DNA of 64,000 nt. Origin: Oscillatoriales bacterium. Its GTDB lineage: Bacteria > Cyanobacteriota > Cyanobacteriia > Cyanobacteriales > Microcoleaceae. The stretch is taken from positions 1,356-65,355 of the forward strand of contig JAYSVM010000183.1 in the NCBI GenBank assembly GCA_043718495.1, written 5' to 3'. This document shows positions 27,454 through 43,772 of the stretch, one piece after another. A program made the position numbers and the translations under genes. The notes below the pieces were generated by a model. The model was not told the origin of the DNA and made no database searches. It was given only the letters and a program-made list of their open reading frames with translations. How positions within the stretch are numbered: the stretch's first letter is position 1; every line of letters starts with the position of its first letter.

Positions 27454-27743
27454 TTATTAGTCATCAATCATTAGTCATGATGCGTTATTCCTGAGTTTTC
27501 AATCGTTAATTGTTGGATTTTACGTCTGTTTCCTACCCGTTAGTAACTGACGATTAATGATTGTTAATTCATGAATCATGAACAGTGACTAATGATTAAT
27601 GATTGACTAATTCATTTAACTATCCACAATGGCTCAAAGTCTTAGAGAATAAGCTATTCAGCCAGAGAAAAATTGTTCGGACTATTGTCGGAGGTTCTGA
27701 AAATTTTGGCTAAAATACTTGCCAAATTCAAACAAATCGCCAA

Positions 27744-27950: not shown

Positions 27951-28439
27951 CTTAGCACCCTAGTAGTATTACTAATTCATTGAGTTACCATCCTATCTTA
28001 ATTTTTCGGAAACAGTGTGTTCTAAATAACAGACAACTCAAGAATGTGTAATGATTTATTAAATGAAATTTCTTGACCAGCGGTAAAAACTAATACTCTG
28101 ACCCCCTTGACAAGTACAACATATCATTGATATGAACATCTGCAACCCAATCGACACCCTCCCCTGGAGTAACCACTTTTTTTGCTTTGGGAATCTAATT
28201 TAGTTTAGTTTATGTTATTACAAGAAAGCCCAAGAAAGCACCAGCTTTCATGCCAAGAGTTTCCAAGTCTAAAATCTAAAATCTGAGGGGGGTGTGGGAA
28301 TTGCGATCGCCAAGCTTGTAACAACCGCACTCGATCGCGTCCAAACAGTTGATAACGTATAATATAGATCAGATGCTACGGATATTTCAAAAGTAAAAAC
28401 TAACAACTAAAAACTAACAACTAAAAAGGAGATTCGTAA

Positions 28440-29465
28440 ATGGCTGCAACAGATTTTAAAGATTATTACGCGATTCTGGGACTCAACAAAACTACCAGCG
28501 CTGATGAAATTAAAAAAACTTTTCGTAAACTAGCCCGGAAATATCATCCGGATATGAACCCAGGGAACAAGGAAGCCGAAGCTCGTTTTAAAGAAGTTAA
28601 CGAAGCCTACGAAGTTTTGTCAGACCCGGAAAAACGCAAAAAATACGACCAATATGGTCAATACTGGAAACAAGCTGCGACAACGACCGGCTGGCCTGGC
28701 GGGTATGGGGGTGCTGGACCTACAGACTTTGGTGGCGTTGACTTCAGCCAGTATGGCAGCTTTGATGAGTTTATTAATACCTTACTCGGCCGTGCGGGTG
28801 GCGCTGGTGGCCCTGGTGCTAGTGCAGGTCGTAATGGCAAGTGGAATCAGAGCAATTACCGCACTACGACAGGTGGACCGACGGGTTTTGGGGGATTTGA
28901 AGATTTCGCGGGGTATGAAAACCGTGCCACAGGAACATCTCTCAATACGGAAGTGGCGATTTCTCTAACTTTGGGGGAAGCATTTCGTGGCACTTCTAAG
29001 AGAGTCGCTACGGGGGAAGTTTCGATTCCTGCGGGAGTGAAAACTGGGAGCAAAATTCGGGTAAAAGGTAAAGGTCAAGTTGACCCGTATACCAAGCAGC
29101 AGGGAGATTTGTTCCTGAAAGTAGAGGTTTTGGCTCATCCTTTTTTCCAGTTTGATGGGGAAAATTTAATCTGTGAAGTGCCGATAACTCCCGACGAAGC
29201 GGTTTTGGGAGCGTCTATTGAGGTGCCGGTGCCAGAAGGTATGATAACTGTAAAATTTCCTGCTGGAATGCGATCGGGCCAGTCTTTGCGGTTGCGGGGT
29301 AAGGGATGGCCGAAACCGAAGAAGGATGAACGGACTGATCTTTTGGTGAAAATCGCGATCGTACCGCCAAAAGAAATCACCACTCTGGAACGCGAATGTT
29401 ATGAAAAAATCCAGGAAAATCGTACTTTTAATCCCCGTAGTAATTTAAACCAAGGGCTGCTGTGA
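28440..29465 (+). CDS. DnaJ-family co-chaperone without zinc finger (CbpA-like)
   Basis: J domain DYYAILGL...[46 protein letters not shown], a Gly-rich linker and a DnaJ C-terminal beta domain. No CxxCxGxG repeats. Confidence 0.85.
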
Positions 29466-29473
29466 CTGAAATT

Positions 29474-29531
29474 AGGACACGACAGTGTCGTGTCCCTACA
29501 ATATTATTTTGGGTAGGGACACGGCATTGCC
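29474..29531. repeat. Inverted pair of GGGACACGGCA..TGCCGTGTCCCTAC-family elements
   Basis: AGGACACGACAGTGTCGTGTCCCTAC ... GTAGGGACACGGCATTGCC, directly after the dnaJ-like stop. Confidence 0.8.
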
Positions 29532-29672
29532 TTGGACTCTATCCTGGCGGTGCTTGGGTTGAGGCGGGTTTACAAATATCTGGAGGTGAAGTTATGGATA
29601 TTGGTAAACCCGCAAGACGAGGGGATTTTTGTCGATCGACCTATTCATGCTTTTAGCCTTCAAGCTTCTTTC

Positions 29673-29960
29673 TTACTCTTCGTTGGCTTTTAGCTGGGTT
29701 GGTTGACGACCTTGTTTGATGTTGATGCTAATTTTTTTAGCTCCTTTTTTCTCCAAGTCTTTGATATAGCCGATCGTGCTATTGTCGGCTTCATCCTTAC
29801 TTCGATACGGGCCAAAGTAATAGGTGCGGTTTGGTGAGTCTGTATCAACTTCCACCCACCACTGGCCATTCTGACCGACGCCCATCGGTTGAGTCAGTAT
29901 CAAAAAGGCTATAACGTACATCGCCAAGATAGAAAATCCAAACATCGTACACCTCTGCAA
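29673..29960 (-). CDS. DUF1816-like small membrane-anchored protein
   Basis: N-terminal TM helix, then WWVEVDTDSPNRTYYFGPYRSKDEA...YIKDLE, which matches my recollection of the DUF1816 signature. Confidence 0.6.
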   Translation of the reverse strand: MQRCTMFGFSILAMYVIAFLILTQPMGVGQNGQWWVEVDTDSPNRTYYFGPYRSKDEADNSTIGYIKDLEKKGAKKISINIKQGRQPTQLKANEE

Positions 29961-30436
29961 GAAGTAGAGTAATTTTTACTGTTCTTAACTTATCAGGGCA
30001 AATAGCTCGCTCGAATCGTCCTCAGTGCTGATTAGGCTGGGGTAATTGTTGAGACTTTAGGCAAGTATCGATAATTGGCGATCGCCTCCATGATTGATGT
30101 TAATACCTTTAATGCCGATCAAAAACCCGGTTGATGAGAGTCAAAGTATGTAAGTATTGTTCATTTCACTACCGCTATATTGCCCAATCCAAATCCAAAT
30201 TAGTTTCTTTAATTACTGCTACAAATAACCTGTAATATTTCTTTACTTTTACTCAGATAAGCTGCTACCTATATAAATTGCTGCTTATTGCCCATCTTGC
30301 TAGAGGAGAAAGGATTTGATGCTTTTTCTAGGAAGGCGAAATATCTTGTTTAAATCCACAACAACACATTATCTTCATAATTATCAGCGATAATATTCAT
30401 TATTTTTAATTTTTTTAACTTTTCCCGTAAATATAC

Positions 30437-30481
30437 GCAAAATTATGAAGATTTAGCTTTACTAAATCTTCATAATTTTGC
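30437..30481. promoter_or_regulatory. Perfect 20-bp inverted repeat with 5-nt spacer in the AT-rich leader upstream of the exporter gene
   Basis: GCAAAATTATGAAGATTTAG cttta CTAAATCTTCATAATTTTGC. A third half-site ATCTTCATAATT lies at 30371-30382 and an ATTATC-agc-GATAAT palindrome at 30380-30394. Confidence 0.4.
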
Positions 30482-30776
30482 TGAAAATACCGCTTAAATA
30501 TAAAGATTTGGTAAAGTTTGCCGGGAAACTGTAGTCAATATATCAATCATGTAAGTATGATCAGAACCAAGCCAGGCAACACGTAAGTAATCGATACCAC
30601 TCCTTAAAAGACCAGATACCACATCCTTAAACTTTTGAACGGAGGTCTGAAATAAGCAGCTTTTATGCCAAATTTATTTTTTTTAGCTAGCTAGGTTGAT
30701 TTTAACCAGCTCCAATTTTTGCATTACCTAGCTAGTTCTCGATCGCCCAATTCAACGTAATTTAAAAGGGGAAGCT

Positions 30777-33700
30777 ATGAATAAAAGCTTAGGTGTAAAA
30801 AATTACTTTTCCCGATCGCCTGAATCAGTACAGAATATTCCAGCGATTCAACAACTGTTGGAGGAGATAGGCGCAGAACCCACATTAGTTGCCAAAGTAA
30901 ATGCAGCCTGTGAAATTTATGACTTTCAGCTAGGAGATGAAATCACAAGGTATCAAAATCTGGATAGTGACAGCCATTTACTTGACAAAGAACCGATCGA
31001 TCGCAATTGTTACTTAGTTAGCCAAGGAAGAGTCAGGCTGCTAGCAGTAACACGCACTACACAGGAAGAAATTTCGGCAGTTGTACTGGAAGTTGGAGAA
31101 ATATTTGGCACAGATAACCTCTTTGTCGAAACCGGAGTAGCTTACAGAGCAATTGCCGCCGGTACTTGCCAAATGGCTCGGATTGATATAGCGAAATTGC
31201 AGCCAATTTTAGAAGAATGTCCCCAACTGCAACAGCACTTGCGGACACAATTTCAACAGCGGCAGCGGTTAATATTCTTTAAGACACAAACAGAATTGGG
31301 AACCCTCGAACCCCAGCAACAACAAATCCTGTGGCCTCAGTTACTCCCTTACATAGAAGAAACCCGAATCCCCGCCGGAGTTTCACTCGCTCAGCAACAT
31401 CAAAAATCACAAAGTCATTTTTGGCTACGCAGCGGTCAAATTCAAGGTAAAAAACCACCAATTATCGGCAGTGATTGGGGATATCCAGACTCTGAATCTG
31501 AAGATTGGCAAGCTCAAACAGACCTACTAATTTACCAGCTTAACAGCGCACAGTGGGAAATCGCAACAGCAATAATTTATGACAACAGCAATTCTTCCCC
31601 AAAAATCATCCGCAAACCTAAAATTACAACCTTAATACAGCCTCCACAAAAATCCAACCACACCTCACAAACCCAGTCACATAAATTAATCGTCGTCGAG
31701 AATTCTCAATCCAAAGCAGTTAGTATTACCTTTCCAAAACCTAAGCGACGCAGGTGGTTTGGTAGTGGACACCCATTCATTCAACAGCAAAGTTCAGCAG
31801 ACTGTGGAGCCACCTGCTTAGCGATGATTAGCGAGTATTGGGGTAAAAAATTCAGCCTTAATTATTTGCGCGAATTAGCAGAAATTGGTCGGAGCGGTGC
31901 CTCTCTCAAAAACCTGGCAAAAGCAGCCGAAAGGATGGGTTTTCAGGCTCGTCCTGTGCGAGCTTCTTTAACTCCTCTCCGCAATCAAAATCCCTGGATT
32001 GCTCACTGGCAAGGTAATCACTACGTTGCCGTTTACCGTTTTAAAAATCAACAAGTTTTAGTTGCCGATCCGGCGATGGGCAAGCGGTGGATGAGCGTTA
32101 AAAATTTTACCGAAAATTGGACTGGCTACGCCCTAATTTTAGACCCAACACCCCAGCTATACCGCAATGAAATTGGTGAACAGAAAGGGATCAAAACCAA
32201 AAATTTTCTCGCGATAGTTTGGCCCTACCGTAGTACGATCGCGCAAATTCTGGTAATTTCCTTGTTTATCCAAATATTTGGGATAGTTACTCCGCTATTT
32301 ACCCAAGTAATTCTTGACCAAGTAGTTGTTAGTAAAAGCATAGCAACGCTGCACGTTTTTGCGATCGGACTACTGCTATTTGGTATTTGGCGATCGCTGT
32401 TGAGTGCAAGCAGGCAATACTTGCTAGATTACCTTTCTAACCGTATTGATCTGACTTTAGTTAGTGGCTTTATCAGTCACACTCTCAGTTTGCCGATCAA
32501 ATTTTTTGAATCGCGTCAGGTTGGCGATATTTTGACGCGAGTTCAGGAAAATCAAAAAATTCAGACGTTTCTGACACGCCAAGCGATTACTGCTTGGTTA
32601 GATGCTTTGATGGCGGTAGTTTACATCGCACTGATGGTTTACTACAACGGGCGTCTGGCTTTGTTGGTTCTGGCTTTGATTCCGCCGATCGTGATTTTGA
32701 CTTTGGTGGCAACTCCGTTTCTGCGAAAAGTATCGCGGGAAATTTTTAATGAAGGCGCTAAGCAAAACTCATCTTTGGTAGAGATGATTACTGGGGTGGC
32801 GACGATTAAAGCAACTGCTGCTGAGCGAGAAATGCGGTGGCGCTGGGAAGACCAATTAACCAGTATGATTAATGCCCAATTTCGGGGGCAGAAGTTAGCA
32901 AATTCTTTGCAAATAGTCGGGGGTTCGATTAATACTTTGGGTAGCACGGCTTTGCTGTGGTACGGGGCGATGCTGGTGATTCAAGATGAGTTGACGATCG
33001 GTCAATTTGTCGCTTTTAATATGATGATCGGGAGTGTGATTTCTCCTGTGCTGTCTATAGTGGGACTTTGGGACGAGTTTCAGGAAGTGCTGGTGTCGAT
33101 CGAGCGTTTGGATGATGTATTTTCGGCTGATCCTGAAGAAAGTCCTAACAAACCGATGTTGGTACTGCCACGCATTCAGGGAAGTGTCAAGTTGGAAAAT
33201 GTTTCTTTCCGCTATTCGCAAGATGACGAACGAAATACGCTGCAAAATATTTCTTTTGAGGTGGAACCTGGAGAAACTGTGGCAATTGTCGGCCGCAGTG
33301 GTTCTGGTAAGAGCACTTTGGTGAAGTTGCTGCAAGGTTTCTATTACCCAGAAAAGGGGCGGCTGACAATTGACGGCCACGATATTCGGCATATTTCTTT
33401 GCAGTCGTTGCGGGTTCAGTTGGGTGTTGTTCCTCAAGATTGTTTTTTGTTTTCGGGAACGATTTTGGAAAATATCACGCTGTATAAAAATGGACATGGT
33501 GCTGATTCTAGAAGCTTGGAAGAGGCGATTGAGGTGGCGAAGTTGGCAGAAGCTCATGCTTTTATTCAGGATATGCCGCTTGGTTATCAGACTCCTGTGG
33601 GGGAGAGGGGAACGAGTTTGTCTGGGGGACAACGACAGCGAATTGCGATCGCGCGTGCTCTTTTGGGAGATCCCCGGATTTTGATTTTGGATGAGGCAAC

Positions 33701-33926
33701 TTCTTCGCTGGATACTGAGTCTGAGCGCAGGTTTCAGCAAAATCTGGCTCGGATTAGTCGCGATCGCACTGCGTTTATCATCGCTCACCGGTTGTCTACG
33801 GTGCGTAATGCCGATCGCATTTTAGTTTTAGACAAAGGCATTTTAGCCGAACAAGGCAACCACGACCAATTGATGGCTGAACGTGGACTCTACTATCACC
33901 TTGCTCAGCAACAGCTCGATCTTTAA
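30777..33926 (+). CDS. Peptidase-C39 ABC exporter with N-terminal cyclic-nucleotide-binding-like domains (HetC-like)
   Basis: 1049 aa. Residues 1 to about 300 form two cNMP-binding-like barrels (GEIFGTDNLF...YRAIAAG). C39 motifs are QQQSSADCGATCLAMI, HWQGNHYVAVY and LVADP. There are six TM helices. Walker A GRSGSGKST, signature LSGGQRQR, Walker B ILILDEATS. Confidence 0.9.
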   Translation: MNKSLGVKNYFSRSPESVQNIPAIQQLLEEIGAEPTLVAKVNAACEIYDFQLGDEITRYQNLDSDSHLLDKEPIDRNCYLVSQGRVRLLAVTRTTQEEISAVVLEVGEIFGTDNLFVETGVAYRAIAAGTCQMARIDIAKLQPILEECPQLQQHLRTQFQQRQRLIFFKTQTELGTLEPQQQQILWPQLLPYIEETRIPAGVSLAQQHQKSQSHFWLRSGQIQGKKPPIIGSDWGYPDSESEDWQAQTDLLIYQLNSAQWEIATAIIYDNSNSSPKIIRKPKITTLIQPPQKSNHTSQTQSHKLIVVENSQSKAVSITFPKPKRRRWFGSGHPFIQQQSSADCGATCLAMISEYWGKKFSLNYLRELAEIGRSGASLKNLAKAAERMGFQARPVRASLTPLRNQNPWIAHWQGNHYVAVYRFKNQQVLVADPAMGKRWMSVKNFTENWTGYALILDPTPQLYRNEIGEQKGIKTKNFLAIVWPYRSTIAQILVISLFIQIFGIVTPLFTQVILDQVVVSKSIATLHVFAIGLLLFGIWRSLLSASRQYLLDYLSNRIDLTLVSGFISHTLSLPIKFFESRQVGDILTRVQENQKIQTFLTRQAITAWLDALMAVVYIALMVYYNGRLALLVLALIPPIVILTLVATPFLRKVSREIFNEGAKQNSSLVEMITGVATIKATAAEREMRWRWEDQLTSMINAQFRGQKLANSLQIVGGSINTLGSTALLWYGAMLVIQDELTIGQFVAFNMMIGSVISPVLSIVGLWDEFQEVLVSIERLDDVFSADPEESPNKPMLVLPRIQGSVKLENVSFRYSQDDERNTLQNISFEVEPGETVAIVGRSGSGKSTLVKLLQGFYYPEKGRLTIDGHDIRHISLQSLRVQLGVVPQDCFLFSGTILENITLYKNGHGADSRSLEEAIEVAKLAEAHAFIQDMPLGYQTPVGERGTSLSGGQRQRIAIARALLGDPRILILDEATSSLDTESERRFQQNLARISRDRTAFIIAHRLSTVRNADRILVLDKGILAEQGNHDQLMAERGLYYHLAQQQLDL

Positions 33927-33933
33927 GGAAGAA

Positions 33934-33965
33934 GAACCCCCCCTACCCCCCCAAGGGGGAAAAGA
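33934..33965. repeat. Poly-C/poly-G palindromic mini-element (GAACCCCCCCTACCCCCCCAAGGGGGAAAAG)
   Basis: Intergenic copy of the family also seen inside larC. It is followed by CCCAATGC x3 at 33997-34022. Confidence 0.75.
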
Positions 33966-34045
33966 AGGAAGAAGGTTTGATTTTTGACTTGCAGTTCCCA
34001 ATGCCCAATGCCCAATGCCCAACTGATTAATTTGGAGTAAATACC

Positions 34046-35845
34046 ATGCTTTCAGAAGATGCCAAAGAATTAGGATGCGCTCCTGATGAAATAGATGAAA
34101 TTTATGGGGGTGTAGCTTTAAAAGAAAACGAAGTTAGTCAAAAAAATCACTCTTTAGAAGTAGTAGAACCTCAAAATCGTTCTTCTAAAACCAATGAATA
34201 TATCAATCCTGCCAAGTTCCGTACTCACGAGGAAGATAATTGGTCTACTTCTTTGCAAACTGTACTCGATCAGCCACCAGTATCTTTTCCTCAGAAGTTG
34301 ATATTGGGAGGAATGGTTTTTTTGGTAGCTTTTGGAGCCTGGGTAACTTTCGGAAAAATTGATGAAGTTGGTCACGCTCAGGGCAAATTAGTACCCAAAG
34401 GCGATGTTTACAAAATTCACCCGACTGAGACGGGAAAAATCATTAACCTCGCGATTAAAGAAGGTCAAAAAGTCAAAGCTGGACAGTTATTGGCAGAATT
34501 AGACCCGGAAACGGCTTCAGGGGAGATAGAACGTCTCGATAAAATACTCAATGGTTATCAGATTCAATTGGTACAGCAGATTAGCTCGATCGAACGAACG
34601 CGATTGGAAGCTGAAGCTAGCAAAGCGATCGCAGAAGCGGATCAACGGGGGGCCCAAGCTGCGATCGATCGCGCTCGTGCTTCAGTGGCTACCACACAGT
34701 CTCAAATCGAGCAATTGCGATCGGATGTAGTGTCTCAGCAAGCACGCTCTAAACAGCTCAAACCGCTGGAGAAGCAGGCGCAAGACTTGGTTTCGCAACT
34801 GCAAACAGATATTAACTCTCAACAAGGGCGGCGCGATCGGGTGAAACCGTTGCAACGTAAGACTCAAGATTTGTTGACACAATTGCAAGTAAAAGTAGCT
34901 GCTCACAAAGAGCGGATCGCGCGGCTCAAACCGTTGGTGGATGAAGGAGCGCTCTCAAAAGACGTTTTGTTTCAAGCTGAGGAAGCTCTGCGGGAAAGTG
35001 AAAACGCCGTGATCAGAAGCCAGTTGGGAGAGGAAAGTCAGGCTGACGATCGCGCTTTTGAAGTCGAGCAAACCATGCGCGATAAGCAAGGCGCTCAGAT
35101 CAGGAGTCAACTGTCTGATGCAACAGTAGTTAAGGAAAAGCTGTTTGAGGTTGAACAGGGTTTGCGCGATCGAACTAGCGCCATTTCTAAAACCCAAGGT
35201 GAATTAACTCAAGGATTGGCAGAAGTCGATCGACTACAAGCCGAAGCCGCCAGCAAGCAAGCCACAGCCCGTCAAACGCAGTTAGAAAAAGAGCAAAAAG
35301 TTCAGCAGTTGGAAATGGAATTAAATCAAGTCAAATCCAAAATTGCCGAAACCCAAACCATGCTAGCTCAAGCCAAAAATAAACTCAAACAAAGATTTCT
35401 CTACGCACCAGTCAACGGAGTTATTTCGACTCTCAATGTCCACAACAAGGGCGAAGTTGTTCAAACCGGTCAAACCATTGCCCAAATGACTCCGAATAAC
35501 GCTCCTCTAGTGCTGGAAGTCAGTTTACCGAACCGAGAAGCGGGATTTGTCAAAACCGGAATGCCGGTAAAAGTCAAATTCGATGCTTTTCCCTATCAAA
35601 ATTACGGCGTGATTCCGGGAAAAGTGGTATCGATTTCGCCGGATGCCAAAACCGACGAGCGATTGGGTGTTTTTTACCGGGTGGAGGTGAGTATCGATCG
35701 AGACTCAGTGAAAGCCAACAATCAAACCTGGAAACTGAAAGCTGGCCAGACAGCTACTGCGGAAATTGTCATCCGCCAGCGCTCCATAGCCGACATTTTG
35801 CTCGATCCTCTCAAGCAACTACAAAAGGGCGGTATGAGTTTGTAG
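34046..35845 (+). CDS. HlyD-family membrane fusion / periplasmic adaptor protein with an extended coiled coil
   Basis: N-terminal TM (LILGGMVFLVAFGAWVTF), lipoyl-like GKLVP...VKAGQLLAELD, a Gln/Arg-rich coiled coil of about 300 aa, then YAPVNGVISTLNV...GQTIAQM and a beta-barrel tail. Confidence 0.9.
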   Translation: MLSEDAKELGCAPDEIDEIYGGVALKENEVSQKNHSLEVVEPQNRSSKTNEYINPAKFRTHEEDNWSTSLQTVLDQPPVSFPQKLILGGMVFLVAFGAWVTFGKIDEVGHAQGKLVPKGDVYKIHPTETGKIINLAIKEGQKVKAGQLLAELDPETASGEIERLDKILNGYQIQLVQQISSIERTRLEAEASKAIAEADQRGAQAAIDRARASVATTQSQIEQLRSDVVSQQARSKQLKPLEKQAQDLVSQLQTDINSQQGRRDRVKPLQRKTQDLLTQLQVKVAAHKERIARLKPLVDEGALSKDVLFQAEEALRESENAVIRSQLGEESQADDRAFEVEQTMRDKQGAQIRSQLSDATVVKEKLFEVEQGLRDRTSAISKTQGELTQGLAEVDRLQAEAASKQATARQTQLEKEQKVQQLEMELNQVKSKIAETQTMLAQAKNKLKQRFLYAPVNGVISTLNVHNKGEVVQTGQTIAQMTPNNAPLVLEVSLPNREAGFVKTGMPVKVKFDAFPYQNYGVIPGKVVSISPDAKTDERLGVFYRVEVSIDRDSVKANNQTWKLKAGQTATAEIVIRQRSIADILLDPLKQLQKGGMSL

Positions 35846-35992
35846 TCAGTAGTCAGTAGTCAGTAGTCAGTAGTCATTAGTCATTAGTTATTGGTTATTG
35901 GTTGTTAGAAATGAGAGCTAACAACTAACAAATAACAACAGTCAACAGTCAACCCTTCGACTCCGCTCAGGGCACCGCAGTCAACAGTCAAC
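35843..35992. repeat. STRR-like heptamer arrays forming an imperfect long hairpin (TAGTCAG x5, TAGTCAT, TGGTTAT ... CTAACAA, CAGTCAA)
   Basis: The hlyD TAG stop codon is the first repeat unit. The left array (35843-35908) and right array (35918-35953) are roughly reverse-complementary. Confidence 0.8.
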
Positions 35993-36018
35993 TAATTTAC
36001 ACAAAACAGGATAAAACT

Positions 36019-36438
36019 ATGAATTCCCAATTTCACCATTCTGCCAGCCATTCGCAAGTTGGAATTAAACCCGAACAATTGGATGAGATAGTTTCAGCAA
36101 TTTTGGCAGGAAAGTATTCTTGGGCTTGTTTTTTACTTTTGCGCTGTACTGGTTACAACCCTCTCGACTACATCCCCTATCGCACTTCCAACCGCTTGCT
36201 TAAGGAAAACAGTCAAATCAGCAAGTCGCATAAATCGGAAACTAAGTCGGCGATGAGCAAAATTGCGGATTTAGATTATGTGGAGGTGTTGAGGGAACAA
36301 CGAGCCGGAGTTCGAGGGGGTTTTGTAACTCAAGTCAATGGTGAAGCGGAATATATCTCGTCGCCGACGGTTGATGTTCAAAATCAAGGGTTTTTTGCTG
36401 ACTTTAAGACACGTTTGTTTAATTTCGCGGGCAAGTAA
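36019..36438 (+). CDS. HetP-like protein
   Basis: [46 protein letters not shown] matches the conserved N-terminal core of HetP-family proteins as I recall it ([29 protein letters not shown]). Confidence 0.6.
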
Positions 36439-36548
36439 ATTGTACTATCCGCGAACAACCCGGTGGCTAGTGTTGGGTGTACCAATTTGTTGGTTGACTC
36501 ATCGCGGGCGATCGGGTTTTCAAGTATCCAACATCCGCGCTTCAGATC

Positions 36549-36668
36549 AATCTGCCAAAATGGCAACATGATATTGCGATCGCCTCTAGTTTTTTAGCAA
36601 ACAATTAACATAAATTCATGAAATTAACTTTACATTTTAATTTTCACAAATCTGCCAAATTGGCAACA
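36549..36668. promoter_or_regulatory. Two copies of a 20-mer AATCTGCCAAA(A/T)TGGCAACA exactly 100 nt apart, upstream of the first precursor gene
   Basis: Copies at 36549-36568 and 36649-36668 (19/20 identical). Each contains the TGCCAA-N-TTGGCA palindrome. Confidence 0.35.
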
Positions 36669-36755
36669 CAGCTCTAATTAGTCGAGATATATTAGGTATA
36701 TCGAAAGCAAACAAGATTGCTTCGAGCAAGCAATAAAAAAACAAGGAAAAAAACC

Positions 36756-37010
36756 ATGATTATCTCTGACCTGAACCATGTAGAAGTTGTTTCCGAAGAA
36801 ACAGAAACCAGTATTGAAGGCGGATATTTTTACGGCGGCTACCCCTACTACGGCACCTCCAATTATGCCAGTGCTGGATCTCGCGCACTAGCCTTCGGTC
36901 AGTTCAGTTCTGCATACACATCCACCAGCACATTTACCGCGTCTGGCGTTGCTAGCTCTTCTAGCGGTGCGAGTTCGAGTTCTAGTAATTACGGCGGCTG
37001 GTGGTACTAA
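36756..37010 (+). CDS. Double-glycine-leader precursor peptide 1 (23-aa leader, 61-aa Gly/Ser/Tyr-rich Cys-free core)
   Basis: An AAGGA RBS precedes the ATG at 36756. Sequence: MIISDLNHVEVVSEETETSIEGG / YFYGGYPYYGTSNYASAGSRALAFGQF...NYGGWWY. The ORF-track start at 36717 is probably too far upstream. Confidence 0.75.
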   Translation: MIISDLNHVEVVSEETETSIEGGYFYGGYPYYGTSNYASAGSRALAFGQFSSAYTSTSTFTASGVASSSSGASSSSSNYGGWWY

Positions 37011-37245
37011 GAGCAGTGTAGACCAGCAGTCAGAAACTCAGCTATGTAAAGAAATGCAATAATTCTTTGATTGACCTCTATATAGGTAGTTCACAAATTA
37101 TAGCCCTACTTTACATAGCTAGTTTATACATAGCGGTTATTGGGTAGATGAGGTACACAATATCTTAATCGCACAGAATTACCCAGTTTTTAAGTCAAAA
37201 TTACAGCCGTATCCAAGAAGAATAATCAGATAGAGGTAAAAATCA

Positions 37246-37494
37246 ATGAGAATTGAGGATTTGACATATTTGGAGAAAATTTCTGACGAAGGCAATATTG
37301 TTGGCGGTTTTGCTTCAGTCGGTATCAATATTTTTGGCTCAGCGAACGGTGCATTCACCTTAACTGCTGCTATTTCTCAGTCTTGGGCAGTATCTTCGCC
37401 TTACGGTGGTTCTCTAGCGGTTGGTTACGGTCAGGTATTTGCGCTCGCCTACACTCCGCCGTCATTTCCCAAGTTCCCAAACTATATTCCGTGA
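37246..37494 (+). CDS. Double-glycine-leader precursor peptide 2 (21-aa leader, 61-aa Cys-free core)
   Basis: An AGAGG RBS precedes the start. Sequence: MRIEDLTYLEKISDEGNIVGG / FASVGINIFGSANGAFTLTAAISQSW...PKFPNYIP. The leader is collinear with precursor 1 (I.DL..(V/L)E..S.E....GG). Confidence 0.75.
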   Translation: MRIEDLTYLEKISDEGNIVGGFASVGINIFGSANGAFTLTAAISQSWAVSSPYGGSLAVGYGQVFALAYTPPSFPKFPNYIP

Positions 37495-37638
37495 ATAAGA
37501 GAAATTAAATAATTTCTAATATCTCGATCGGGGAATGAAAGAAATCACAATAAAAATCTCTAGCTCCATTGCTTTGAACAACAGCAATTTTCAGTTAATT
37601 TATCCAGCTTAAAACAAATTTTAAGGAGATTAACAGCG

Positions 37639-39198
37639 ATGCCTCCATTAGACGCATCTGCTCCTCCTACCCTAACGGTCGGTAGCAGCAGTCCAAATGG
37701 CTTTAACTTATTAGCGGGTGGAACTGCTGCAAGTAGTAGTGCACCTACTAACTATTCAGCATCAGCCTCAACAGCTAACAGTTCTACAATTTCTAATCCC
37801 AGCGAGGCTTCTGGAGGCAGCAGCAGTTCGGCTAAATCCAGTTCATTGGTAGATAGCAATGGTGCCGGCAGTACCAGCAGCGCAAAAGGTACTTCTCCTA
37901 CGGGAGAAACGAGCAATAGCAGCAAAACAGTCTATACTCCAGGAGCTACTTCCACTAGCGGCAGCGCAGAAGCTTCCGCTTCTTCCGATGTTCCTCCAAC
38001 ATCGAACGCGAAAGTAACAACACCAACTCCAACGCCAACTCCAGCAGCAATCACAACTCCAACTCCAACTCCAGCAGCAGTAACAACTCCAACTCCAGCA
38101 GCAGTAACAACTCCAACGCCAGCAACAACTCCCACCCCAACTCCAACTCCAGCAGCAATCACAACTCCAACTCCAGCAGCAATCGCAACTCCAATTCCAA
38201 CACCTTCAGGTAGTAATAGTTCGAGTCAAACAAGTACGATCGCAAATAATCAAGGTGTTACTAACAATAGCAGCGCCACAGTAACTTCCCCCGCCGGCAC
38301 TAGCACGAGCACTCAGACAGTCTATACTCCGGGAGCTACTTCTGGCAGTGCAGAAGCAGTGGCTGTTACAGGTACTCCAGCAAAAACTAACATCATAATA
38401 CCAGTACCAGTACCAACTCCAACTCCCACTCCAACTCCCACTCCAACTCCAACTCCAATACCAACTCCAACACTATCAAATAATCAGGCTGTAACTGAGT
38501 CCACAGATAAGAGTAACAGCAATAATTTGATCGCCTTTCTTGCTAACAATTCCAACACAGAGAATGCTGCAACAACCATTTTTGCAGAAATTAGCAACAC
38601 AGAAAACCAGCCTTTGGCATTAACTGTCACCTACGACAGCAACGGCGGCCAAAATTGGCGCGGCACTGATGACATTGATGTGATTGATTGTGGCAGCGGA
38701 TTCGATCTAGTTTTTGCCGGAGGTGGTGACGATATTGTCACAGGTAGTAGAGGCAACGATACGCTCGATGGAGCCGAGGGAAACGACACCTTGCGGGGAG
38801 GAAGAGGTCAAGATTTGTTGATTGGTGGCGACGGCGATGATTTTCTGTGTGGTGACTTTGGCGGTGATACATTGACGGGAGGTAACGGTGCTGATAGGTT
38901 TGTATTTAGACCGGAAACAGCGACTCCTATAGCTAATCTAGCTTATGCAGATATCATCCAAGATTTCAATGCAGATCAAGGCGATAAAATTGGGTTAACA
39001 GCCGGAATTGCGATCGCAGAAATTTCACTGCAAGTATTTGATACTGACAATAACGGTCAAGCTGATGCGACGATGGTCAAATTTAGTTCCAATAATGGCG
39101 ATCGCATTTTAGCTGTAGTTCTGGGAACTGTTAATGCGGCGGGTAAAACAACTTTGAGTAATGCAGATTTTATTACTTTGCCAAATAACATTTTTTAA
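37639..39198 (+). CDS. RTX (hemolysin-type calcium-binding repeat) protein with Ser-rich and Thr/Pro-rich linkers
   Basis: AAGGAG RBS. TPTPTPAAITTPTPTP arrays, then nonapeptide repeats GGGDDIVTGSRGNDTLDGAEGNDTLRGGRGQDLLIGGDGDDFLCGDFGGDTLTGGNGADRFVF. Confidence 0.85.
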   Translation: MPPLDASAPPTLTVGSSSPNGFNLLAGGTAASSSAPTNYSASASTANSSTISNPSEASGGSSSSAKSSSLVDSNGAGSTSSAKGTSPTGETSNSSKTVYTPGATSTSGSAEASASSDVPPTSNAKVTTPTPTPTPAAITTPTPTPAAVTTPTPAAVTTPTPATTPTPTPTPAAITTPTPAAIATPIPTPSGSNSSSQTSTIANNQGVTNNSSATVTSPAGTSTSTQTVYTPGATSGSAEAVAVTGTPAKTNIIIPVPVPTPTPTPTPTPTPTPIPTPTLSNNQAVTESTDKSNSNNLIAFLANNSNTENAATTIFAEISNTENQPLALTVTYDSNGGQNWRGTDDIDVIDCGSGFDLVFAGGGDDIVTGSRGNDTLDGAEGNDTLRGGRGQDLLIGGDGDDFLCGDFGGDTLTGGNGADRFVFRPETATPIANLAYADIIQDFNADQGDKIGLTAGIAIAEISLQVFDTDNNGQADATMVKFSSNNGDRILAVVLGTVNAAGKTTLSNADFITLPNNIF

Positions 39199-39281
39199 GC
39201 TCTGCATTATCGCCAAAAATTCATTATTAGTCGGCCAAAGCTGACTAATTTGATTAAAATTATCTGAGTTGCAAGAGAAAC

Positions 39282-40037
39282 ATGAAAAACTTTTACCAGC
39301 CAATGATTCAGGCAGATGAAATCATCGACTCTCTCAAACAAGAATTGCAAGTAAAGCCATTTTATCAAAGGATTTTGCAGAAGAGAGTCATTGATACAAC
39401 TGCCCAAGAACGGGGGTTAAGCGTGACTCCCGACGAAATTCAAGCAGAGGGAGACAAACTGCGGCGTGAGAAGCGTTTGGAAAGAGCTGCGGATACGATT
39501 GCTTGGCTGGCAGATCAGATGATTTCGGTAGAAGACTTAGAGGCCGGAATTTGCGATCGGCTATTGGCTAAAAAACTAGCCGAATTTTTATTTAGCAAAG
39601 ATGTTAAAAAAGTTTTTGTCCAAAACAAATTGCAATTCGATCAAATCATTCTGTATCAAATAATTGTCGAAGATGCTAAGCTTGCTCAAGAACTATTTTA
39701 TCAAATTCAAGAAGGAGAAATTAGCTTTTTTGATGCGGCTCATTTTTATGACATTGACGAAAATCGTCGGAATTTATGTGGCTGCGAAGGCAAGGTTTAT
39801 CGATGGGGTTTAAAGCCAGATATAGCCGTTGCATTATTTAGCACTAAACCGGGAGAGGTAATTCGTCCAATTCAAACTGACCTAGGATATCATTTGTTCA
39901 TGGTTGAAAAGTTTCTCCCTGCTGAATTAAACGCTGAGCGGTATGAAGAAATATTGCAAAAGATGTTTAATGAATGGCTATCCAATGAGGTGAACTATTT
40001 GTTATATAATCAATCCGAAATTGCGATAGCCCGGTAA
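39282..40037 (+). CDS. Parvulin/PpiC-type peptidyl-prolyl isomerase (SurA-like)
   Basis: The C-terminal rotamase-like segment reads FFDAAHFYDID...GKVYRWGLKPDIAVALFSTKPGEVIRPIQTDLGYHLFMVE. The N-terminal part is a helical chaperone-like region. Confidence 0.7.
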   Translation: MKNFYQPMIQADEIIDSLKQELQVKPFYQRILQKRVIDTTAQERGLSVTPDEIQAEGDKLRREKRLERAADTIAWLADQMISVEDLEAGICDRLLAKKLAEFLFSKDVKKVFVQNKLQFDQIILYQIIVEDAKLAQELFYQIQEGEISFFDAAHFYDIDENRRNLCGCEGKVYRWGLKPDIAVALFSTKPGEVIRPIQTDLGYHLFMVEKFLPAELNAERYEEILQKMFNEWLSNEVNYLLYNQSEIAIAR

Positions 40038-40044
40038 TAAAACC

Positions 40045-40221
40045 ATGAAAAAATATAAAACTATCATCAAACGAACGATTTCACCTGATGGTTGTGCAAC
40101 ATCAGAAGCAAAAAGCACAATTGTCGAAGATGGTGAAACTAAAGTGAGTCAATTTGTGTCAACAAAAGTCAGTAAGACTACTAGCAGCAGTAGCAGTTCT
40201 AGCTCTAGCTATAGTAAATGA
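40045..40221 (+). CDS. Unlisted 58-aa ORF with a poly-Ser tail
   Basis: Hand translation gives MKKYKTIIKRTISPDGCATSEAKSTIVEDGETKVSQFVSTKVSKTTSSSSSSSSSYSK*. It is below the 60-aa cutoff of the track and starts 8 nt after the PPIase stop. Confidence 0.35.
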   Translation: MKKYKTIIKRTISPDGCATSEAKSTIVEDGETKVSQFVSTKVSKTTSSSSSSSSSYSK

Positions 40222-40259
40222 TATCAAATCCGGTGGCATCGGAATTATTCGTCTCTCTA

Positions 40260-42455
40260 TCAAAAACCAACGTAATTTTGCCGCCACCAAGCGCGCACTA
40301 ACTTAATTTCCTCAAACGTATAAACTTCTTGCAAAAACTCATAAATTGCTTTCAATTTCTCATCTCCAAGTATCTCAATTGCTTGCACAATTGGCTGCTG
40401 TCGTTCCGGTTCCACCAATAAATGGATATCGACTTTTTGCTCCATGTCCATCAATTCTACTAAGTGCCCAACAATTGTACTAGAAGTCATTCCTCTGATT
40501 TCTGCTATCCCTTCAACTGTCAAACCTTTTCTGTGTAATTCCCAGGTTTGTGTCTGTGTATAAGAGGGAAAATTGGAAACATTGGAACTTTGAACTACAG
40601 CAGAGGGTACTGCGCCAGCGGGCAAGCCTTTTTCTTTACAAAAGTTGCGAATTGCCTCCAAGAAAACTTTACCGTACTTATCTCGCTTGTTGCTACCAAC
40701 GCCGTAGACTTCTACGAATTCTGTGAGATTTTGTGGGCGCTTTTCTGCCATATCTCGCAAGCTTTTATCGGCAAAGATGACATAGGGTGGCACGAATTGT
40801 TCATCGGCAATTTGTTTACGCAGCGTTCGCAATATGGCAAATAAACTTTCAACTTCTACGGCTAAAGAGCGATTTGTTGCTTGCACTTCCTGTTTCGGTT
40901 TGATGGCGATTTCTACTGTGCGCTGACGTTTCATTATTTCCCAACTTTTTTCGTTGAGTTTCAAGATTGGGAAGCCGTCGGTTGTTTCGTCTAATAATCC
41001 TTGATTTAAGAGTGAACGCACTAACATTTTCCAATCGTCTGCACTTCTATCTTTGCCAATTCCATAGGTAGAAAGTCGGTCATGTTGGTATTGCAAAACT
41101 TTTTGGTTTTTTGAGCCACGCAAAATATCAATGATGTGATTCATCCCAAATTTTTCTTTGCACCTAGCCACACCAGAAAGAAATTTCATTGCTTCTACTG
41201 TCCAGTCTTCTACTGGTTTTTTGTTGCAACAGTTATCACAATTTCCGCAGTTTCCGGGGAATGAGTCGCCAAAATAACTTAACTGAATTGTCCGACGACA
41301 ATCGGTTGATTCTGCATAGTTAATGACTCGTCGTAATTGTTGGCGACCAATTCGTTGTTCTTGTGGGTCGGGCTTGAGTTCTAGCATATATTCGATGGTT
41401 TTGACATCGCCAAATCCAAAGAATAATGTACAATGGGATGGTTCGTTATCTCTACCTGCTCGACCTGATTCTTGATAGTATCCTTCGAGATTCTTGGGTA
41501 AGTCGTAGTGTATTACAAAGCGGACATCGGGTTTGTTGATTCCCATGCCGAAGGCGACTGTGGCTACCATTACTTGTACGTCGTCGCGAATGAAGCGGGT
41601 TTGATTGGTTGTGCGATCCATGTTGCTCATCCCAGCATGGTAAGGTAAAGCTTGGATGCCACTTTGTTGCAATTTTGAGGCGACTTCTTCGACTTTTTTG
41701 CGACTGAGACAATAGATGATTCCTGAACCGCCTTTTTTTTGAATTATTTTCAAAACTTCGGCAAAACTATGCTTGTTTTTGGCGCGGACTTCGTAGTATA
41801 AATTGGGGCGGTTGAAGCTGGCGACATGGATGTAAGGATTTCGCAGGGTTAGCTGCTGGATGATGTCTTGGCGGACGCGCTCGGTGGCGGTGGCGGTTAG
41901 TGCCATAATGGGGATGTCTGGGTAGCGATCGCGCACTCGTTCCATTTGTCGGTATTCTGGACGAAAATCGTGTCCCCATTCGGAAACGCAGTGGGCTTCG
42001 TCGATCGCAAAAGCTGAAATTCCTAACTTATCTGCTACTATATCTAGGAATGGCAAAAATCTCTCGCCCAGCAAGCGTTCGGGAGCAACGTAGAGCAGTT
42101 TGATTTTACCTTCGAGAATTGCTGTTTCGCGCGATCGGACTTCCAGGGAATTCAAACTGCTGTTGAGAAAAGTCGCCCCAATCCCATTATCTACCAAAGC
42201 TTCCACCTGGTCTTGCATCAGAGCAATTAACGGCGAAACAACGACGCTTAAACCTGGTTTCAATAGTGCCGGCAATTGAAAACACAAGGACTTACCACCG
42301 CCCGTCGGCATCACAATCATCTGATCCCGTTTTTCGAGGGCCGCTTCGACAATTTCTCTCTGTCCCGGACGAAAAGAGTCATAGCCAAAAAAATGTTTCA
42401 GATGGTGTTCGAGGGAAGGTGGGACAGGAGATGTTGGCAGATTTGACCCTGACAT
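40260..42455 (-). CDS. recQ: ATP-dependent DNA helicase RecQ
   Basis: FGYDSFRPGQREIVEA, MPTGGGKSLCFQLPA, DEAHCVSEWGHDFRPEY, the zinc-binding CGNCDNC, an HRDC-like region and an extra C-terminal HTH-like tail. Confidence 0.95.
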   Translation of the reverse strand: MSGSNLPTSPVPPSLEHHLKHFFGYDSFRPGQREIVEAALEKRDQMIVMPTGGGKSLCFQLPALLKPGLSVVVSPLIALMQDQVEALVDNGIGATFLNSSLNSLEVRSRETAILEGKIKLLYVAPERLLGERFLPFLDIVADKLGISAFAIDEAHCVSEWGHDFRPEYRQMERVRDRYPDIPIMALTATATERVRQDIIQQLTLRNPYIHVASFNRPNLYYEVRAKNKHSFAEVLKIIQKKGGSGIIYCLSRKKVEEVASKLQQSGIQALPYHAGMSNMDRTTNQTRFIRDDVQVMVATVAFGMGINKPDVRFVIHYDLPKNLEGYYQESGRAGRDNEPSHCTLFFGFGDVKTIEYMLELKPDPQEQRIGRQQLRRVINYAESTDCRRTIQLSYFGDSFPGNCGNCDNCCNKKPVEDWTVEAMKFLSGVARCKEKFGMNHIIDILRGSKNQKVLQYQHDRLSTYGIGKDRSADDWKMLVRSLLNQGLLDETTDGFPILKLNEKSWEIMKRQRTVEIAIKPKQEVQATNRSLAVEVESLFAILRTLRKQIADEQFVPPYVIFADKSLRDMAEKRPQNLTEFVEVYGVGSNKRDKYGKVFLEAIRNFCKEKGLPAGAVPSAVVQSSNVSNFPSYTQTQTWELHRKGLTVEGIAEIRGMTSSTIVGHLVELMDMEQKVDIHLLVEPERQQPIVQAIEILGDEKLKAIYEFLQEVYTFEEIKLVRAWWRQNYVGF

Positions 42456-42552
42456 TTGCAGTAGTTGGTTTGTGACTTCTACACTATTCTATGCTTTTTG
42501 AGTACAAATACAGTTACAATAATTAAAATTCTTAATTTAACCAGAGAAACCG

Positions 42553-42837
42553 ATGCCGAAAGCAATTTGGAATGGTGCCGTTTTGGCAGAAAGCGACAAG
42601 TGCGAAGTTGTAGATAACAACTATTATTTCCCTGCGGATGCCATCAAGCGTGAGTTTTTCAAGGATAGTAGCACTCACACTACTTGCGGTTGGAAAGGTG
42701 TCGCTAGTTACTATAGCATTGAAGTCGCTGGAGAAGTGAATAAAGATGCCGCTTGGTATTATCCTACTCCGAAAGATGCGGCTAAAAATATTGGAGGCTA
42801 CATCGCTTTTTGGAAAGGAGTTAAGGTGGAAGCTTAA
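42553..42837 (+). CDS. DUF427 domain protein
   Basis: WNGAVLAESD...YYFP...T.C.WKG.ASYY...NKDAAWYYPTP pattern. Length 94 aa. Confidence 0.8.
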   Translation: MPKAIWNGAVLAESDKCEVVDNNYYFPADAIKREFFKDSSTHTTCGWKGVASYYSIEVAGEVNKDAAWYYPTPKDAAKNIGGYIAFWKGVKVEA

Positions 42838-42844
42838 GCAAGGT

Positions 42845-42907
42845 GGGACACGGCAATGCCGTTTCCCTACGCCAAATTAATTGTGGGGACACGGCAATGC
42901 CGTTTCC
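42845..42907. repeat. Two GGGACACGGCAATGCCGTTTCC elements
   Basis: Direct reading. Same family as 58372-58436. Confidence 0.8.
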
Positions 42908-42957
42908 TAATTATGGGTAATATTAATTCCGATTCCACCACATTTTGTATAATATTA

Positions 42958-43023
42958 GAACAGGCAAGATGCCTGTTCCACAAAGAGTGAGTTTTTTTGT
43001 GGGGTGGGCATCCTGCCCGCCCA
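42958..43023. repeat. Inverted pair of GGCAAGATGCC-family elements
   Basis: GAACAGGCAAGATGCCTGTTCCACAAAG ... TTTGTGGGGTGGGCATCCTGCCCGCCC, lying between convergent genes. Confidence 0.8.
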
Positions 43024-43031
43024 TGCCAAAA

Positions 43032-43697: not shown

Positions 43698-43772
43698 GTT
43701 ATGATATTGCAGGCTAAGTGGGCGATCGAAATATCGACTGAAACAATCAACTATCAAAATTAATTGTTAATA

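Follow-up and report, generated by a model that had tools for sequence, protein, structure and literature searches.

What does the exporter encoded at this locus carry out of the cell, and is the HetP-family protein made beside it a regulator of that traffic or part of its freight? The locus consists of eight co-directional open reading frames (ORFs) on the forward strand, at 30777-40221 of a 64,000-nucleotide stretch of DNA from an Oscillatoriales bacterium (contig JAYSVM010000183.1 of assembly GCA_043718495.1, positions 1,356 to 65,355; hereafter the window), which a preliminary description had presented as a peptide export island. We read the block as a chromosomal type I secretion cluster that belongs, with HetC and PteB, to the cyanobacterial class of "long-type" peptidase-containing ATP-binding cassette (ABC) transporters (PCATs) and that works by the mechanism proposed below, and we put the probability of this reading at roughly 0.8. 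The heart of the preliminary description, a C39-ABC/HlyD export system with double-glycine (GG) cargo of its own, a HetP-family gene and a parvulin, was borne out by profile scans and by synteny. Its statement that the arrangement had not been functionally characterised had to be dropped, because the design is found in Wang, Fewer and Sivonen (2011, PMC3140520) and because HetC (PMC10986499) and PteB with its EbfG substrates (PMC4997328, PMC9981879) have been studied. The cluster arrangement is thus already known, the class having been on record since 2004 and 2011, with experimental work on two of its members; what is new here is a tandem regulatory module with a non-canonical binding cassette, a HetP-like protein that is built like a substrate, and an RTX gene that is lineage-specific.

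The first gene (30777-33926; like all features given below without a strand, on the forward strand) encodes a long-type, HetC/PteB-like peptidase-containing ABC exporter of 1049 aa. Pfam recognises a C39 cysteine peptidase domain (Peptidase_C39, residues 333-459, 134.7 bits; 31773-32153) followed by a transmembrane domain (ABC_membrane, residues 491-757, 156.3 bits) and a nucleotide-binding domain (ABC_tran, residues 822-976, 133.4 bits), which together span 32247-33704. The oxyanion Gln336-338, Cys343, His415 and Asp431 align with ComA (3k8u), LahT (6mpz) and PCAT1 (4ry2), so that the catalytic Cys, His and Asp first read from the sequence context are, by alignment, intact, and the ATPase motifs are likewise present (Walker A GSGKST at 842, signature LSGGQ at 948, Walker B ILILDEAT at 968). 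The nearest full-length solved relatives, over the PCAT part, are HlyB (7sgr, 487 bits) and PCAT1 (4ry2, 453 bits). Against the NCBIfam models the exporter scores just or well under the cut-offs (TIGR01193, 503.2 vs 523.85; TIGR01846, 653.9 vs 725.55; TIGR03796, 570.6 vs 853.3), which argues that it represents a divergent cyanobacterial subfamily.

Ahead of the peptidase lies a tandem cyclic-nucleotide-binding (CNB)-like regulatory module (30840-31589). Roughly 300 residues of such barrels had been described from the sequence, and in the AlphaFold2 (AF2) model of residues 1-335 (pLDDT 73.8) the N-terminal ~270 residues do form two barrel-plus-helix units, CNB-1 (~22-171) and CNB-2 (~173-271), which a disordered linker (residues 274-332) joins to the C39 domain. 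The best Protein Data Bank (PDB) matches of this model in Foldseek were the tandem CNB-A/B domains of PKG and PKA-R (E ~4e-12 over ~285 columns). Pfam scores CNB-1 only, at residues 72-147 and marginally (cNMP_binding, 30.8 bits vs a gathering score of 27.5), and the second barrel is visible in the AF2 model alone; all domain calls of the preliminary description held in the profile searches, with the cyclic nucleotide monophosphate (cNMP) match being marginal and confined to one barrel. In the canonical phosphate-binding cassette (PBC) of CRP and PKA-R, Glu and Arg are spaced by 8-9 residues. The PBC-like segment of the window exporter has Glu108 and Arg124, 15 residues apart, and among homologues the Glu varies as E/A/D/Q and the Arg as R/Q/G/D, while CNB-2 lacks a PBC and carries a different conserved motif, FWLRSGxIQ…SWGYP…DWxAQTDLL; judged by its residues, the cassette of this module is non-canonical. 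Stand-alone two-CNB proteins homologous to the module also exist (P0011, P0012, P0014, P0015, P0019), and stand-alone CNB proteins were noted for group V clusters by Wang 2011 (PMC3140520).

Two small genes downstream encode the candidate cargo, GG-leader cargo protein 1 (36756-37010, 84 aa) and cargo protein 2 (37246-37494, 82 aa). Both of the GG-leader peptides first described are real, with one start revised: the listed ORF for cargo 1 begins at TTG 36717 and would give 97 aa, the gene call on the Logan contig gives 84 aa, and ATG 36756 is the most likely start. Cargo 1 has the leader MIISDLNHVEVVSEETETSIEGG and a 61-aa Gly/Ser/Tyr-rich core of 6.3 kDa, and cargo 2 the leader MRIEDLTYLEKISDEGNIVGG and a 61-aa core, also of 6.3 kDa; neither has a Pfam or NCBIfam match. 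A hidden Markov model (HMM) of the leader, built from small-peptide leaders of other genomes with the HetP-like proteins and the window left out, matched cargo 1 at E = 3.7e-12 and cargo 2 at E = 4.5e-10. The leader pattern derived from the two peptides occurs 4 times in the six frames of the 64-kb window, 3 of them within the cluster proper, where they fall in the two peptides and the HetP-like protein; the one remaining hit, apparently degenerate, is within the RTX protein.

We extended this comparison with a scan of a genome collection, with one genome per species, from which the 80 best loci were taken (exporter orthologues 55-93% identical). Within 9 kb 3' of the exporter, same-strand copies of the leader motif reach a density of 0.33 per kb across these 80 loci; elsewhere in them the density is 0.012 per kb, which makes a 27-fold enrichment, and each cluster holds 1-8 leader-bearing ORFs when the HetP-like gene is counted. 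The leaders are near-identical across clusters (consensus MIISDLNYLEVVSESTSVVGG) and the cores, at 48-90 aa, very variable: 100 distinct cores were Ser/Ala/Thr/Gly/Tyr/Asn-rich and slightly acidic, with a mean of 68 aa, Cys in 9/100 and Pro in 79/100, and Pro was also present in 43 of 48 HetP tails. Because a domain scan of the eight products found no modification or tailoring enzyme in the cluster, the cargo would be unmodified small secreted proteins, and the Cys-poor cores together with the lack of such an enzyme led us to reject a reading as a ribosomally synthesised and post-translationally modified peptide (RiPP), or lanthipeptide, cluster. The family of cargo 2 comprises 22 homologous clusters, all annotated as hypothetical and, where named, all from Microcoleus, with syntenic copies in loci L009, L019 and L023. 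The start of the core of cargo 2 (pep82; 37309-37350) reads FASVGINIFGS, which bears a weak resemblance to A[FI]NI[GS], the amyloid hotspot of EbfG.

The third in-cluster leader site belongs to the HetP-family protein (36019-36438, 139 aa), which matches NF037966 at residues 3-64 with 103.4 bits (cut-off 45) and whose identical gene call in Logan matches HetP (PF28069). Its AF2 model has helices at residues 18-29, 33-43 and 54-65 (pLDDT 84-91) and is otherwise disordered, and a fold search with it against the PDB returned nothing significant (best E = 0.5, TnpE). The layout is thus a three-helix HetP domain (~18-65), a linker, an internal GG leader-like motif (36259-36321) and a 38-aa tail, and the disorder after the HetP domain agrees with what a leader followed by a core should look like. 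The internal motif runs from K81 to G100-G101 as KIADLDYVE-x10-GG, and cleavage is predicted after G101. Fifty-six HetP-like orthologues share one layout, namely the domain (…AILxGKYSWAC…PYRTxNRL…), a variable linker, K-I-x-D-L-x-Y-[LV]-E-x10-G-G and a variable tail (6-55 aa). Across an alignment of 30 sequences only I82, D84, L85, G100 and G101 are invariant outside the HetP domain, with a QGFF motif loosely conserved in the tail. When applied to the 1088 segments of the window, the leader HMM ranked the internal motif third (E = 0.027; the next segment had E = 4.3), and it reached at least 8 bits in 41 of the 57 HetP-like sequences (window plus 56 orthologues) as opposed to 0/285 shuffles.

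The HetP family at large shows the same feature in part. An exhaustive profile search of 1.84 billion proteins found 320 HetP-family representatives, and a tolerant pattern located the internal motif in 106 of the best 150 of these against 2.3 expected from shuffles, a figure that is inflated by the presence of the motif in the query profile. The others among the best 150 are mostly short (80-130 aa) motif-less forms, together with rare fusions. The rare architectures (P0162, P0288, P0298, P0221, P0303) are tandem HetP, HetP-TPR and HetP-EAL, P0303 being the EAL fusion, and they fit a HetP domain that serves as an independent intracellular module. The motif itself was noted in 2011 as KIxDLxYLEx10GG, also in the bona fide HetP alr2818 (Fig. 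S1 of PMC3140520). The preliminary description had placed HetP merely between machinery and cargo, as a developmental regulator; that picture has to be revised, because the protein carries an internal cargo leader and looks like a substrate. By analogy with NHLP and Nif11 leaders, the simplest reading is that of a third substrate in which a long, folded "leader" comes first, and this leader domain may have an intracellular role of its own; and the family name is not descriptive of function here.

Conservation of gene order supports the view that these genes belong together. The closest loci, at 93% exporter identity, are from Tychonema bourrellyi and an Oscillatoriales metagenome-assembled genome; Microcoleus loci follow at 80-84%, and loci of Chroococcidiopsidaceae, Oscillatoria, Leptolyngbyaceae, Xenococcaceae and Crocosphaera at 55-61%, with no record titled as Nostocales among the best 80. 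The host lineage is a Tychonema/Microcoleus-type cyanobacterium and thus non-heterocystous, as Tychonema and Microcoleus are. Synteny was scored by tblastn with the window proteins on the 48 loci that have at least 7 kb downstream, counting genes on the same strand as the exporter. An HlyD gene lies 3' of the exporter in 43 of the 48 and a HetP-like gene downstream in 43/48, at least one leader-bearing ORF is found downstream in 42 and at least two in 37, and PpiC in 38. The order ABC–HlyD–HetP-like–GG peptides–PpiC is accordingly syntenic in ~43/48 informative loci from several cyanobacterial orders, so that the neighbourhood conservation proposed as a check at the outset was found. Four Xenococcaceae loci (L068, L069, L071, L078) are rearranged, with HlyD and HetP-like genes divergent and upstream of the exporter.

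The remaining genes supply the accessory parts. The adaptor, a 599-aa HlyD-family membrane fusion protein (34046-35845), matches HlyD_3 and reaches the type_I_hlyD model (TIGR01843, 240.6 bits vs 208.65), with one transmembrane (TM) helix predicted by hydropathy at residues 85-103. It had been called unusually long in its coiled coil, which can be discarded: its orthologues range from 446 to 683 aa, and a BLASTP self-comparison found no internal repeats. The parvulin-type peptidyl-prolyl isomerase (PPIase; 39282-40037, 251 aa) has its Rotamase domain (PF00639) at residues 133-209 (39.7 bits vs 21.7), lies below the cut-off of the "peptide maturation" family TIGR04500 (54.8 vs 180) and resembles NifM weakly. 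Because it has neither a signal peptide nor a hydrophobic N-terminus (maximum KD19 0.93), it would be cytoplasmic.

The RTX-repeat protein (37639-39198, 519 aa) was, like the parvulin, called correctly from the sequence: HemolysinCabind scores 52.2 bits over 3 stretches, GGxGxD nonapeptide repeats are present, and an RTX block at ~347-456 follows a Ser/Thr/Pro-rich, repetitive N-terminal half. The gene contains tandem DNA repeats at 38024-38201 and 38413-38471. The last ~40 residues, ending ...NAAGxTTLSNADFI(S/T)LPNxI(L/F), are highly conserved across the orthologues of ~30 loci, and the protein is a probable co-located type I secretion substrate. An RTX ORF lies downstream of the exporter in 30 of the 48 loci, nearly all of them Microcoleus/Tychonema; the gene, first counted within the block on equal terms, is a lineage-specific Microcoleus/Tychonema addition outside the conserved core. 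Cluster-linked RTX proteins (37639-37730 in the window; L009, L019, L023) share the N-terminus MPxLD(S/A)…, and in the subgroup of the window this segment ends …NLLAGG/…SLLAGG at about residue 28, a possible degenerate GG site that is kept in a subset only, has no match to the leader HMM and is treated here as unproven. In the four rearranged Xenococcaceae loci an unrelated RTX ORF of 332-336 aa (HemolysinCabind 135-168 bits) stands directly after the exporter, which suggests that RTX proteins were recruited independently to this class of exporter.

The last ORF (40045-40221) encodes a 58-aa, Ser-tailed product with no GG leader, no TM segment and no Pfam or NCBIfam match. The poly-Ser ORF of the preliminary description is therefore present, with conservation limited to L001 (94% DNA identity) and L004 (83%) and a paralogue-like copy in L002, and it is probably a real gene of narrow distribution. 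The family pattern is M..K..IKR.(I/V)S.D.C...AEA.S....DG.TQ(V/I)SQ…poly-Ser, and the L002 copy sits among cargo genes and not after PpiC (L002 16552; L004 17737).

The mechanism that we propose from these parts takes gene content, catalytic residues, the N-terminal fold, leader homology and synteny as its observed base, and from them infers cleavage, export, the ligand, the chaperone role and what the cargo does. The C39 domain would recognise a GG leader of consensus M-I-I-S-D-L-N-Y-L-E-V-V-S-x5-V-V-G-G and cut after the GG, and the C-terminal part would be pumped out by the inner-membrane ABC exporter by way of HlyD and a TolC-like channel encoded elsewhere. The exporter's cis-encoded cargo would comprise two unmodified ~6.3-kDa Ser/Ala/Thr/Gly/Tyr-rich proteins, most likely joined by the 38-aa tail of the HetP-like protein, whose three-helix, DNA-binding-type HetP domain would be left in the cytoplasm. 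The tandem CNB-like N-terminus may serve as a ligand-sensing gate, for which a guanine nucleotide or ppGpp would, by analogy with HetC, be a likelier ligand than cAMP or cGMP. The cytoplasmic parvulin probably keeps the Pro-containing precursors competent for export, and the RTX protein, specific to one lineage, may be a further type I substrate from the same locus, exported by a C-terminal signal.

Two steps of this scheme have competing explanations that bear on how the exporter is controlled and what it cuts. Gating of export by cAMP or cGMP bound to the N-terminal barrels, as the preliminary description suggested, would suit a cNMP_binding score above the gathering threshold, a tandem CNB fold like that of PKA-R and PKG, and the retention of Glu108 and Arg124 in the window exporter, but those residues vary among homologues at a non-canonical spacing and the second barrel has no PBC at all. 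The one homologue with ligand data points elsewhere, as the cNMP-containing fragment of HetC binds ppGpp (Kd ~59 uM) and GTP, while its N-terminal domain was neither stabilised by cAMP, cCMP or c-di-GMP nor found to bind these or 2-oxoglutarate (2-OG; Rachedi et al. 2024, PMC10986499), and CNB folds often take other ligands, such as 2-OG in NtcA (PMC10986499). We therefore consider literal cNMP gating unlikely, indeed the least probable of the alternatives weighed here, and a guanine nucleotide or ppGpp the more likely ligand by analogy. It is easier to imagine that the HetP-like protein is a purely intracellular regulator or accessory that is never cleaved, with I-x-D-L...GG acting as a docking motif for C39, for example in a competitive regulator of processing. 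Anabaena HetP acts inside the cell, on DNA and the targets of sigma-HetZ, a 2026 paper describing it as a protein that binds DNA without specificity and assists sigma-HetZ in reaching those targets; HetP-GFP and HetC-GFP are both found near the cell poles (PMC10986499); the short motif-less forms exist and function; and the loosely conserved QGFF suggests that the tail is not a freely evolving core. Set against this, the GG pair is invariant, as cleavage demands and docking does not, the motif is homologous to the bona fide N-terminal leaders of the co-encoded cargo, and the long protein-derived leaders that precede GG in NHLP and Nif11 precursors are an established precedent (PMC3140520). We hold a protein that is never cleaved to be possible, with the odds on the side of a cleaved substrate.

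The nature of the cargo and the extent of the unit are open to challenge in the same way. For the small cargo we favour secreted matrix or cell-surface proteins of the EbfG kind, or signals, over classical bacteriocins, given how large the proteins are and which residues they contain, that no immunity gene accompanies them, that their hosts form mats, and that EbfG sets a precedent. The opposing view is that the two GG peptides are unmodified class-II-type antimicrobials aimed at competing cyanobacteria, which would make this an antagonism locus: Wang 2011 (PMC3140520) classes such clusters as bacteriocin clusters, a GG leader with C39-ABC and HlyD is the design of microcin export, the cores are hypervariable between strains and occur in 1-8 copies as in antagonism loci, and the pep82 family is confined to Microcoleus. 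However, the cluster encodes no immunity-like small membrane protein, neither the 58-aa nor any other small ORF having a TM segment, the long, slightly acidic cores are not amphipathic or cationic, and the sole tested cargo of a HetC-like exporter in cyanobacteria, EbfG1-4, is biofilm matrix protein and not antibiotic. A bacteriocin function thus strikes us as rather unlikely. Still less probable is the view that the eight genes are not one unit and that the system comprises ABC and HlyD, with or without the HetP-like gene, beside unrelated RTX, PpiC and poly-Ser neighbours. It draws on the near restriction of RTX to one lineage, on a poly-Ser ORF found in three close relatives and on intergenic gaps of 83-317 bp; a scan for promoter consensus sites, listed on the same side, says nothing about operon structure, since shuffled sequences gave more such sites than the real one. 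The presence of PpiC downstream on the same strand across orders speaks for a unit, as do the independent placement of the rotamase in groups I, II and VI by Wang 2011 (PMC3140520), the separate joining of RTX to the exporter in Xenococcaceae and in L073, and a terminator consensus scan that found no convincing forward-strand intergenic terminator before 40229.

Several observations weigh against our reading of the locus as a long-type PCAT cluster with three substrates and keep its probability where we have put it. The exporter reaches no NCBIfam equivalog or subfamily cut-off, the cluster contains no TolC gene, and the size of the gaps between genes makes co-transcription no more than a possibility. 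Cleavage and export of the three candidate substrates are argued from sequence, and for the HetP-like motif of the window the HMM match is at E = 0.027 only. In four Oscillatoria/Okeania-type loci (L045, L049, L051, L056) the HetP-like protein beside the same exporter, at 87-103 aa, has no internal GG leader, and leader-bearing cargo is present there; this is a naturally uncoupled variant that offers a comparison, and since short HetP forms exist, HetP can function unprocessed. For the ligand of the CNB module we extrapolate from a single homologue, HetC, which may be an orthologue or a paralogue, and it would be unorthodox for a PCAT with an active C39 domain to export a 519-aa RTX protein.

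The genomic setting fits a resident locus. The cluster is flanked by a divergent DUF1816 gene (29673-29960, reverse strand) and a convergent recQ (40260-42455, reverse strand), its GC content is like that of its surroundings, none of the ORFs (40 aa or longer) listed for 27000-44000 is a mobility gene, and the chromosomal flanks glgC, dnaJ and DUF1816 on one side and recQ on the other are the same in Tychonema L002. The uniform GC and these shared flanks mark a resident chromosomal cluster and not a mobile element, and with the lack of mobility genes in that stretch they led us to reject horizontal acquisition, and with it the word "island" in that sense. An 817-bp AT-rich region (GC 0.36) ahead of the exporter gene holds a perfect hairpin with a 20-bp stem (30437-30481), which is a possible regulatory element; L001 and L002 retain the whole region at 89-90% conservation, its sub-segments at query 204-289 and 493-709 are kept in more distant Microcoleus, and it contains no NtcA-type GTAN8TAC site. 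A weak terminator-like hairpin follows the last ORF (40229-40243), and an Rfam scan of 29400-40600 (E <= 1) found no RNA family. Further away, 15 kb upstream of the cluster, a 2842-aa ORF (7267-15795, reverse strand) with DUF4114 and a bacterial pre-peptidase C-terminal (PPC) domain probably encodes a very large secreted or surface protein, and a CHASE2-GGDEF-EAL protein (699-3263) combines c-di-GMP turnover with an extracellular sensor domain.

Long-type C39-ABC proteins with a CAP_ED N-terminus were first distinguished by Dirix 2004 (via Wang 2011, PMC3140520), and the design of long-type C39-ABC, HlyD, SurA-like rotamase and precursor arrays is that of Wang, Fewer and Sivonen (2011, PMC3140520). 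The window cluster shares with their groups I and II the ~300-aa CAP_ED extension, HlyD, the SurA-like rotamase, the HetP-like protein with KIxDLxYLEx10GG and the arrays of small precursors. The markers of group II, an M16 peptidase and an APH_ChoK-like kinase, are absent from all eight window products, so that the cluster represents the group I/II core only; RTX proteins, which are in none of Wang's groups, are present here. That study found HetP-like proteins "heavily skewed to group II" and tentatively gave cleavage of the HetP motif to the M16 peptidase (PMC3140520), whereas the present cluster has no M16 peptidase and its motif agrees with the C39-type leaders that the adjacent cargo carries.

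With PCAT1 of C. thermocellum, ComA and LahT the window exporter has in common the C39, transmembrane and nucleotide-binding domains and the conserved catalytic residues, and the match to PCAT1 (453 bits) covers the full PCAT part. Those proteins lack an N-terminal sensor module, for which the window exporter has ~330 extra residues, and unlike theirs the window system is of the Gram-negative kind, dependent on HlyD together with a channel in the outer membrane; its leader subfamily also differs from the classical M(R/K)ELx3E(I/L)x2(I/V)xG(G/A). A precedent for the co-located RTX gene as a type I substrate is offered by Sll1180/Sll1181 of Synechocystis PCC 6803, analogues of HlyB/HlyD, which reportedly export the S-layer protein Sll1951, a large protein of RTX type; Sll1180 is presumably itself a long-type exporter with cNMP and C39 domains. 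For the HetP-like protein the nearest parallel is with the NHLP and Nif11 leaders (Haft 2010), in which a C39 ABC exporter processes a GG site that follows a folded or protein-derived N-terminal region, tens of residues long, and Wang 2011 (PMC3140520) lists HetP beside NHLP and N11P. The HetP-like protein fits this scheme, with the differences that the HetP domain, unlike those leaders, has an independent intracellular function in DNA binding and heterocyst commitment, and that the window cluster has no RiPP modification enzyme.

PteB (Synpcc7942_1133) of S. elongatus PCC 7942 has a "domain organization similar to HetC", and biofilm formation needs the GG-motif proteins EbfG1-4, which PteB secretes in a manner that requires its Cys (PMC4997328, PMC9981879). 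As given there, the EbfG precursors of 9-10 kDa are encoded beside the exporter and mature to 6-7 kDa, close to the 6.3 kDa of the mature window cargo, and their C-termini are similarly Tyr/Pro/Ser-rich (EbfG1 TTYNPPSYPYPSYPK; pep82 ...AYTPPSFPKFPNYIP). This likeness is one of size, composition and Tyr/Pro-rich tails only and not of compared sequences; the amyloid hotspot given for EbfG is only approximated in the window (GINIFG), and the authors state that mature EbfG has no homologues in other cyanobacteria (PMC4997328, PMC9981879). EbfG1-3 form amyloid and EbfG4 is a protein of the cell surface and matrix; the sections consulted of the reports on the PteB/EbfG system describe no HetP-like or RTX gene. 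The present locus would carry the EbfG and PteB paradigm, in which small GG proteins are "public goods" of the matrix, over to Microcoleus and Tychonema, which form mats, and it suggests repeated recruitment of RTX proteins by long-type exporters.

The comparison that matters most is with HetC (alr2817) and HetP (alr2818) of Nostoc/Anabaena PCC 7120, where the likeness of the exporters is by description of HetC and not by its sequence. The architecture is the same, with a cNMP-like domain at 60-146 in HetC and 72-147 here and catalytic Cys347/His420 corresponding to Cys343/His415; a HetP-family gene also stands downstream of the exporter, and HetP carries KIKDLAYLEVVGKQTTEIHGG followed by a 40-aa tail. 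The N-terminal fragment of HetC is a cysteine protease, its peptidase, ATPase and cNMP domains are all required in vivo, and the authors leave its substrate open while raising HetP-derived peptides as a candidate (Rachedi et al. 2024, PMC10986499). In contrast to the Anabaena hetC region, which has no membrane-fusion gene, the window has HlyD between the exporter and the HetP-like gene, carries in addition genes for small GG cargo, a parvulin and an RTX protein, and comes from a non-heterocystous lineage. It is a tentative idea, and one we would not favour at even odds, that HetP-family proteins in general are bipartite PCAT substrates cut at the internal GG, the tail being exported as a possible intercellular signal and the HetP domain staying in or being released into the cytoplasm, so that secretion, gated by a CNB module sensing guanine nucleotide or ppGpp, would be coupled to gene regulation; the exporter-HlyD-HetP-like-cargo arrangement would then be ancestral, and hetC-hetP derived from it by loss of HlyD and cargo. 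If this were true, HetP would be the long-sought substrate of HetC. As the substrate of HetC and the mode of action of HetP are both open questions in heterocyst development, the value of the present locus is comparative: in ~43 syntenic relatives from non-heterocystous cyanobacteria a HetP-family gene is a fixed partner of the exporter and adaptor and has the same leader as the cargo, with an invariant GG. These relatives lend comparative support to HetP-family proteins as PCAT substrates, an idea floated in 2011 and 2024, and with cargo, adaptor and exporter encoded together, whether HetP is a PCAT substrate has become a directly testable question.

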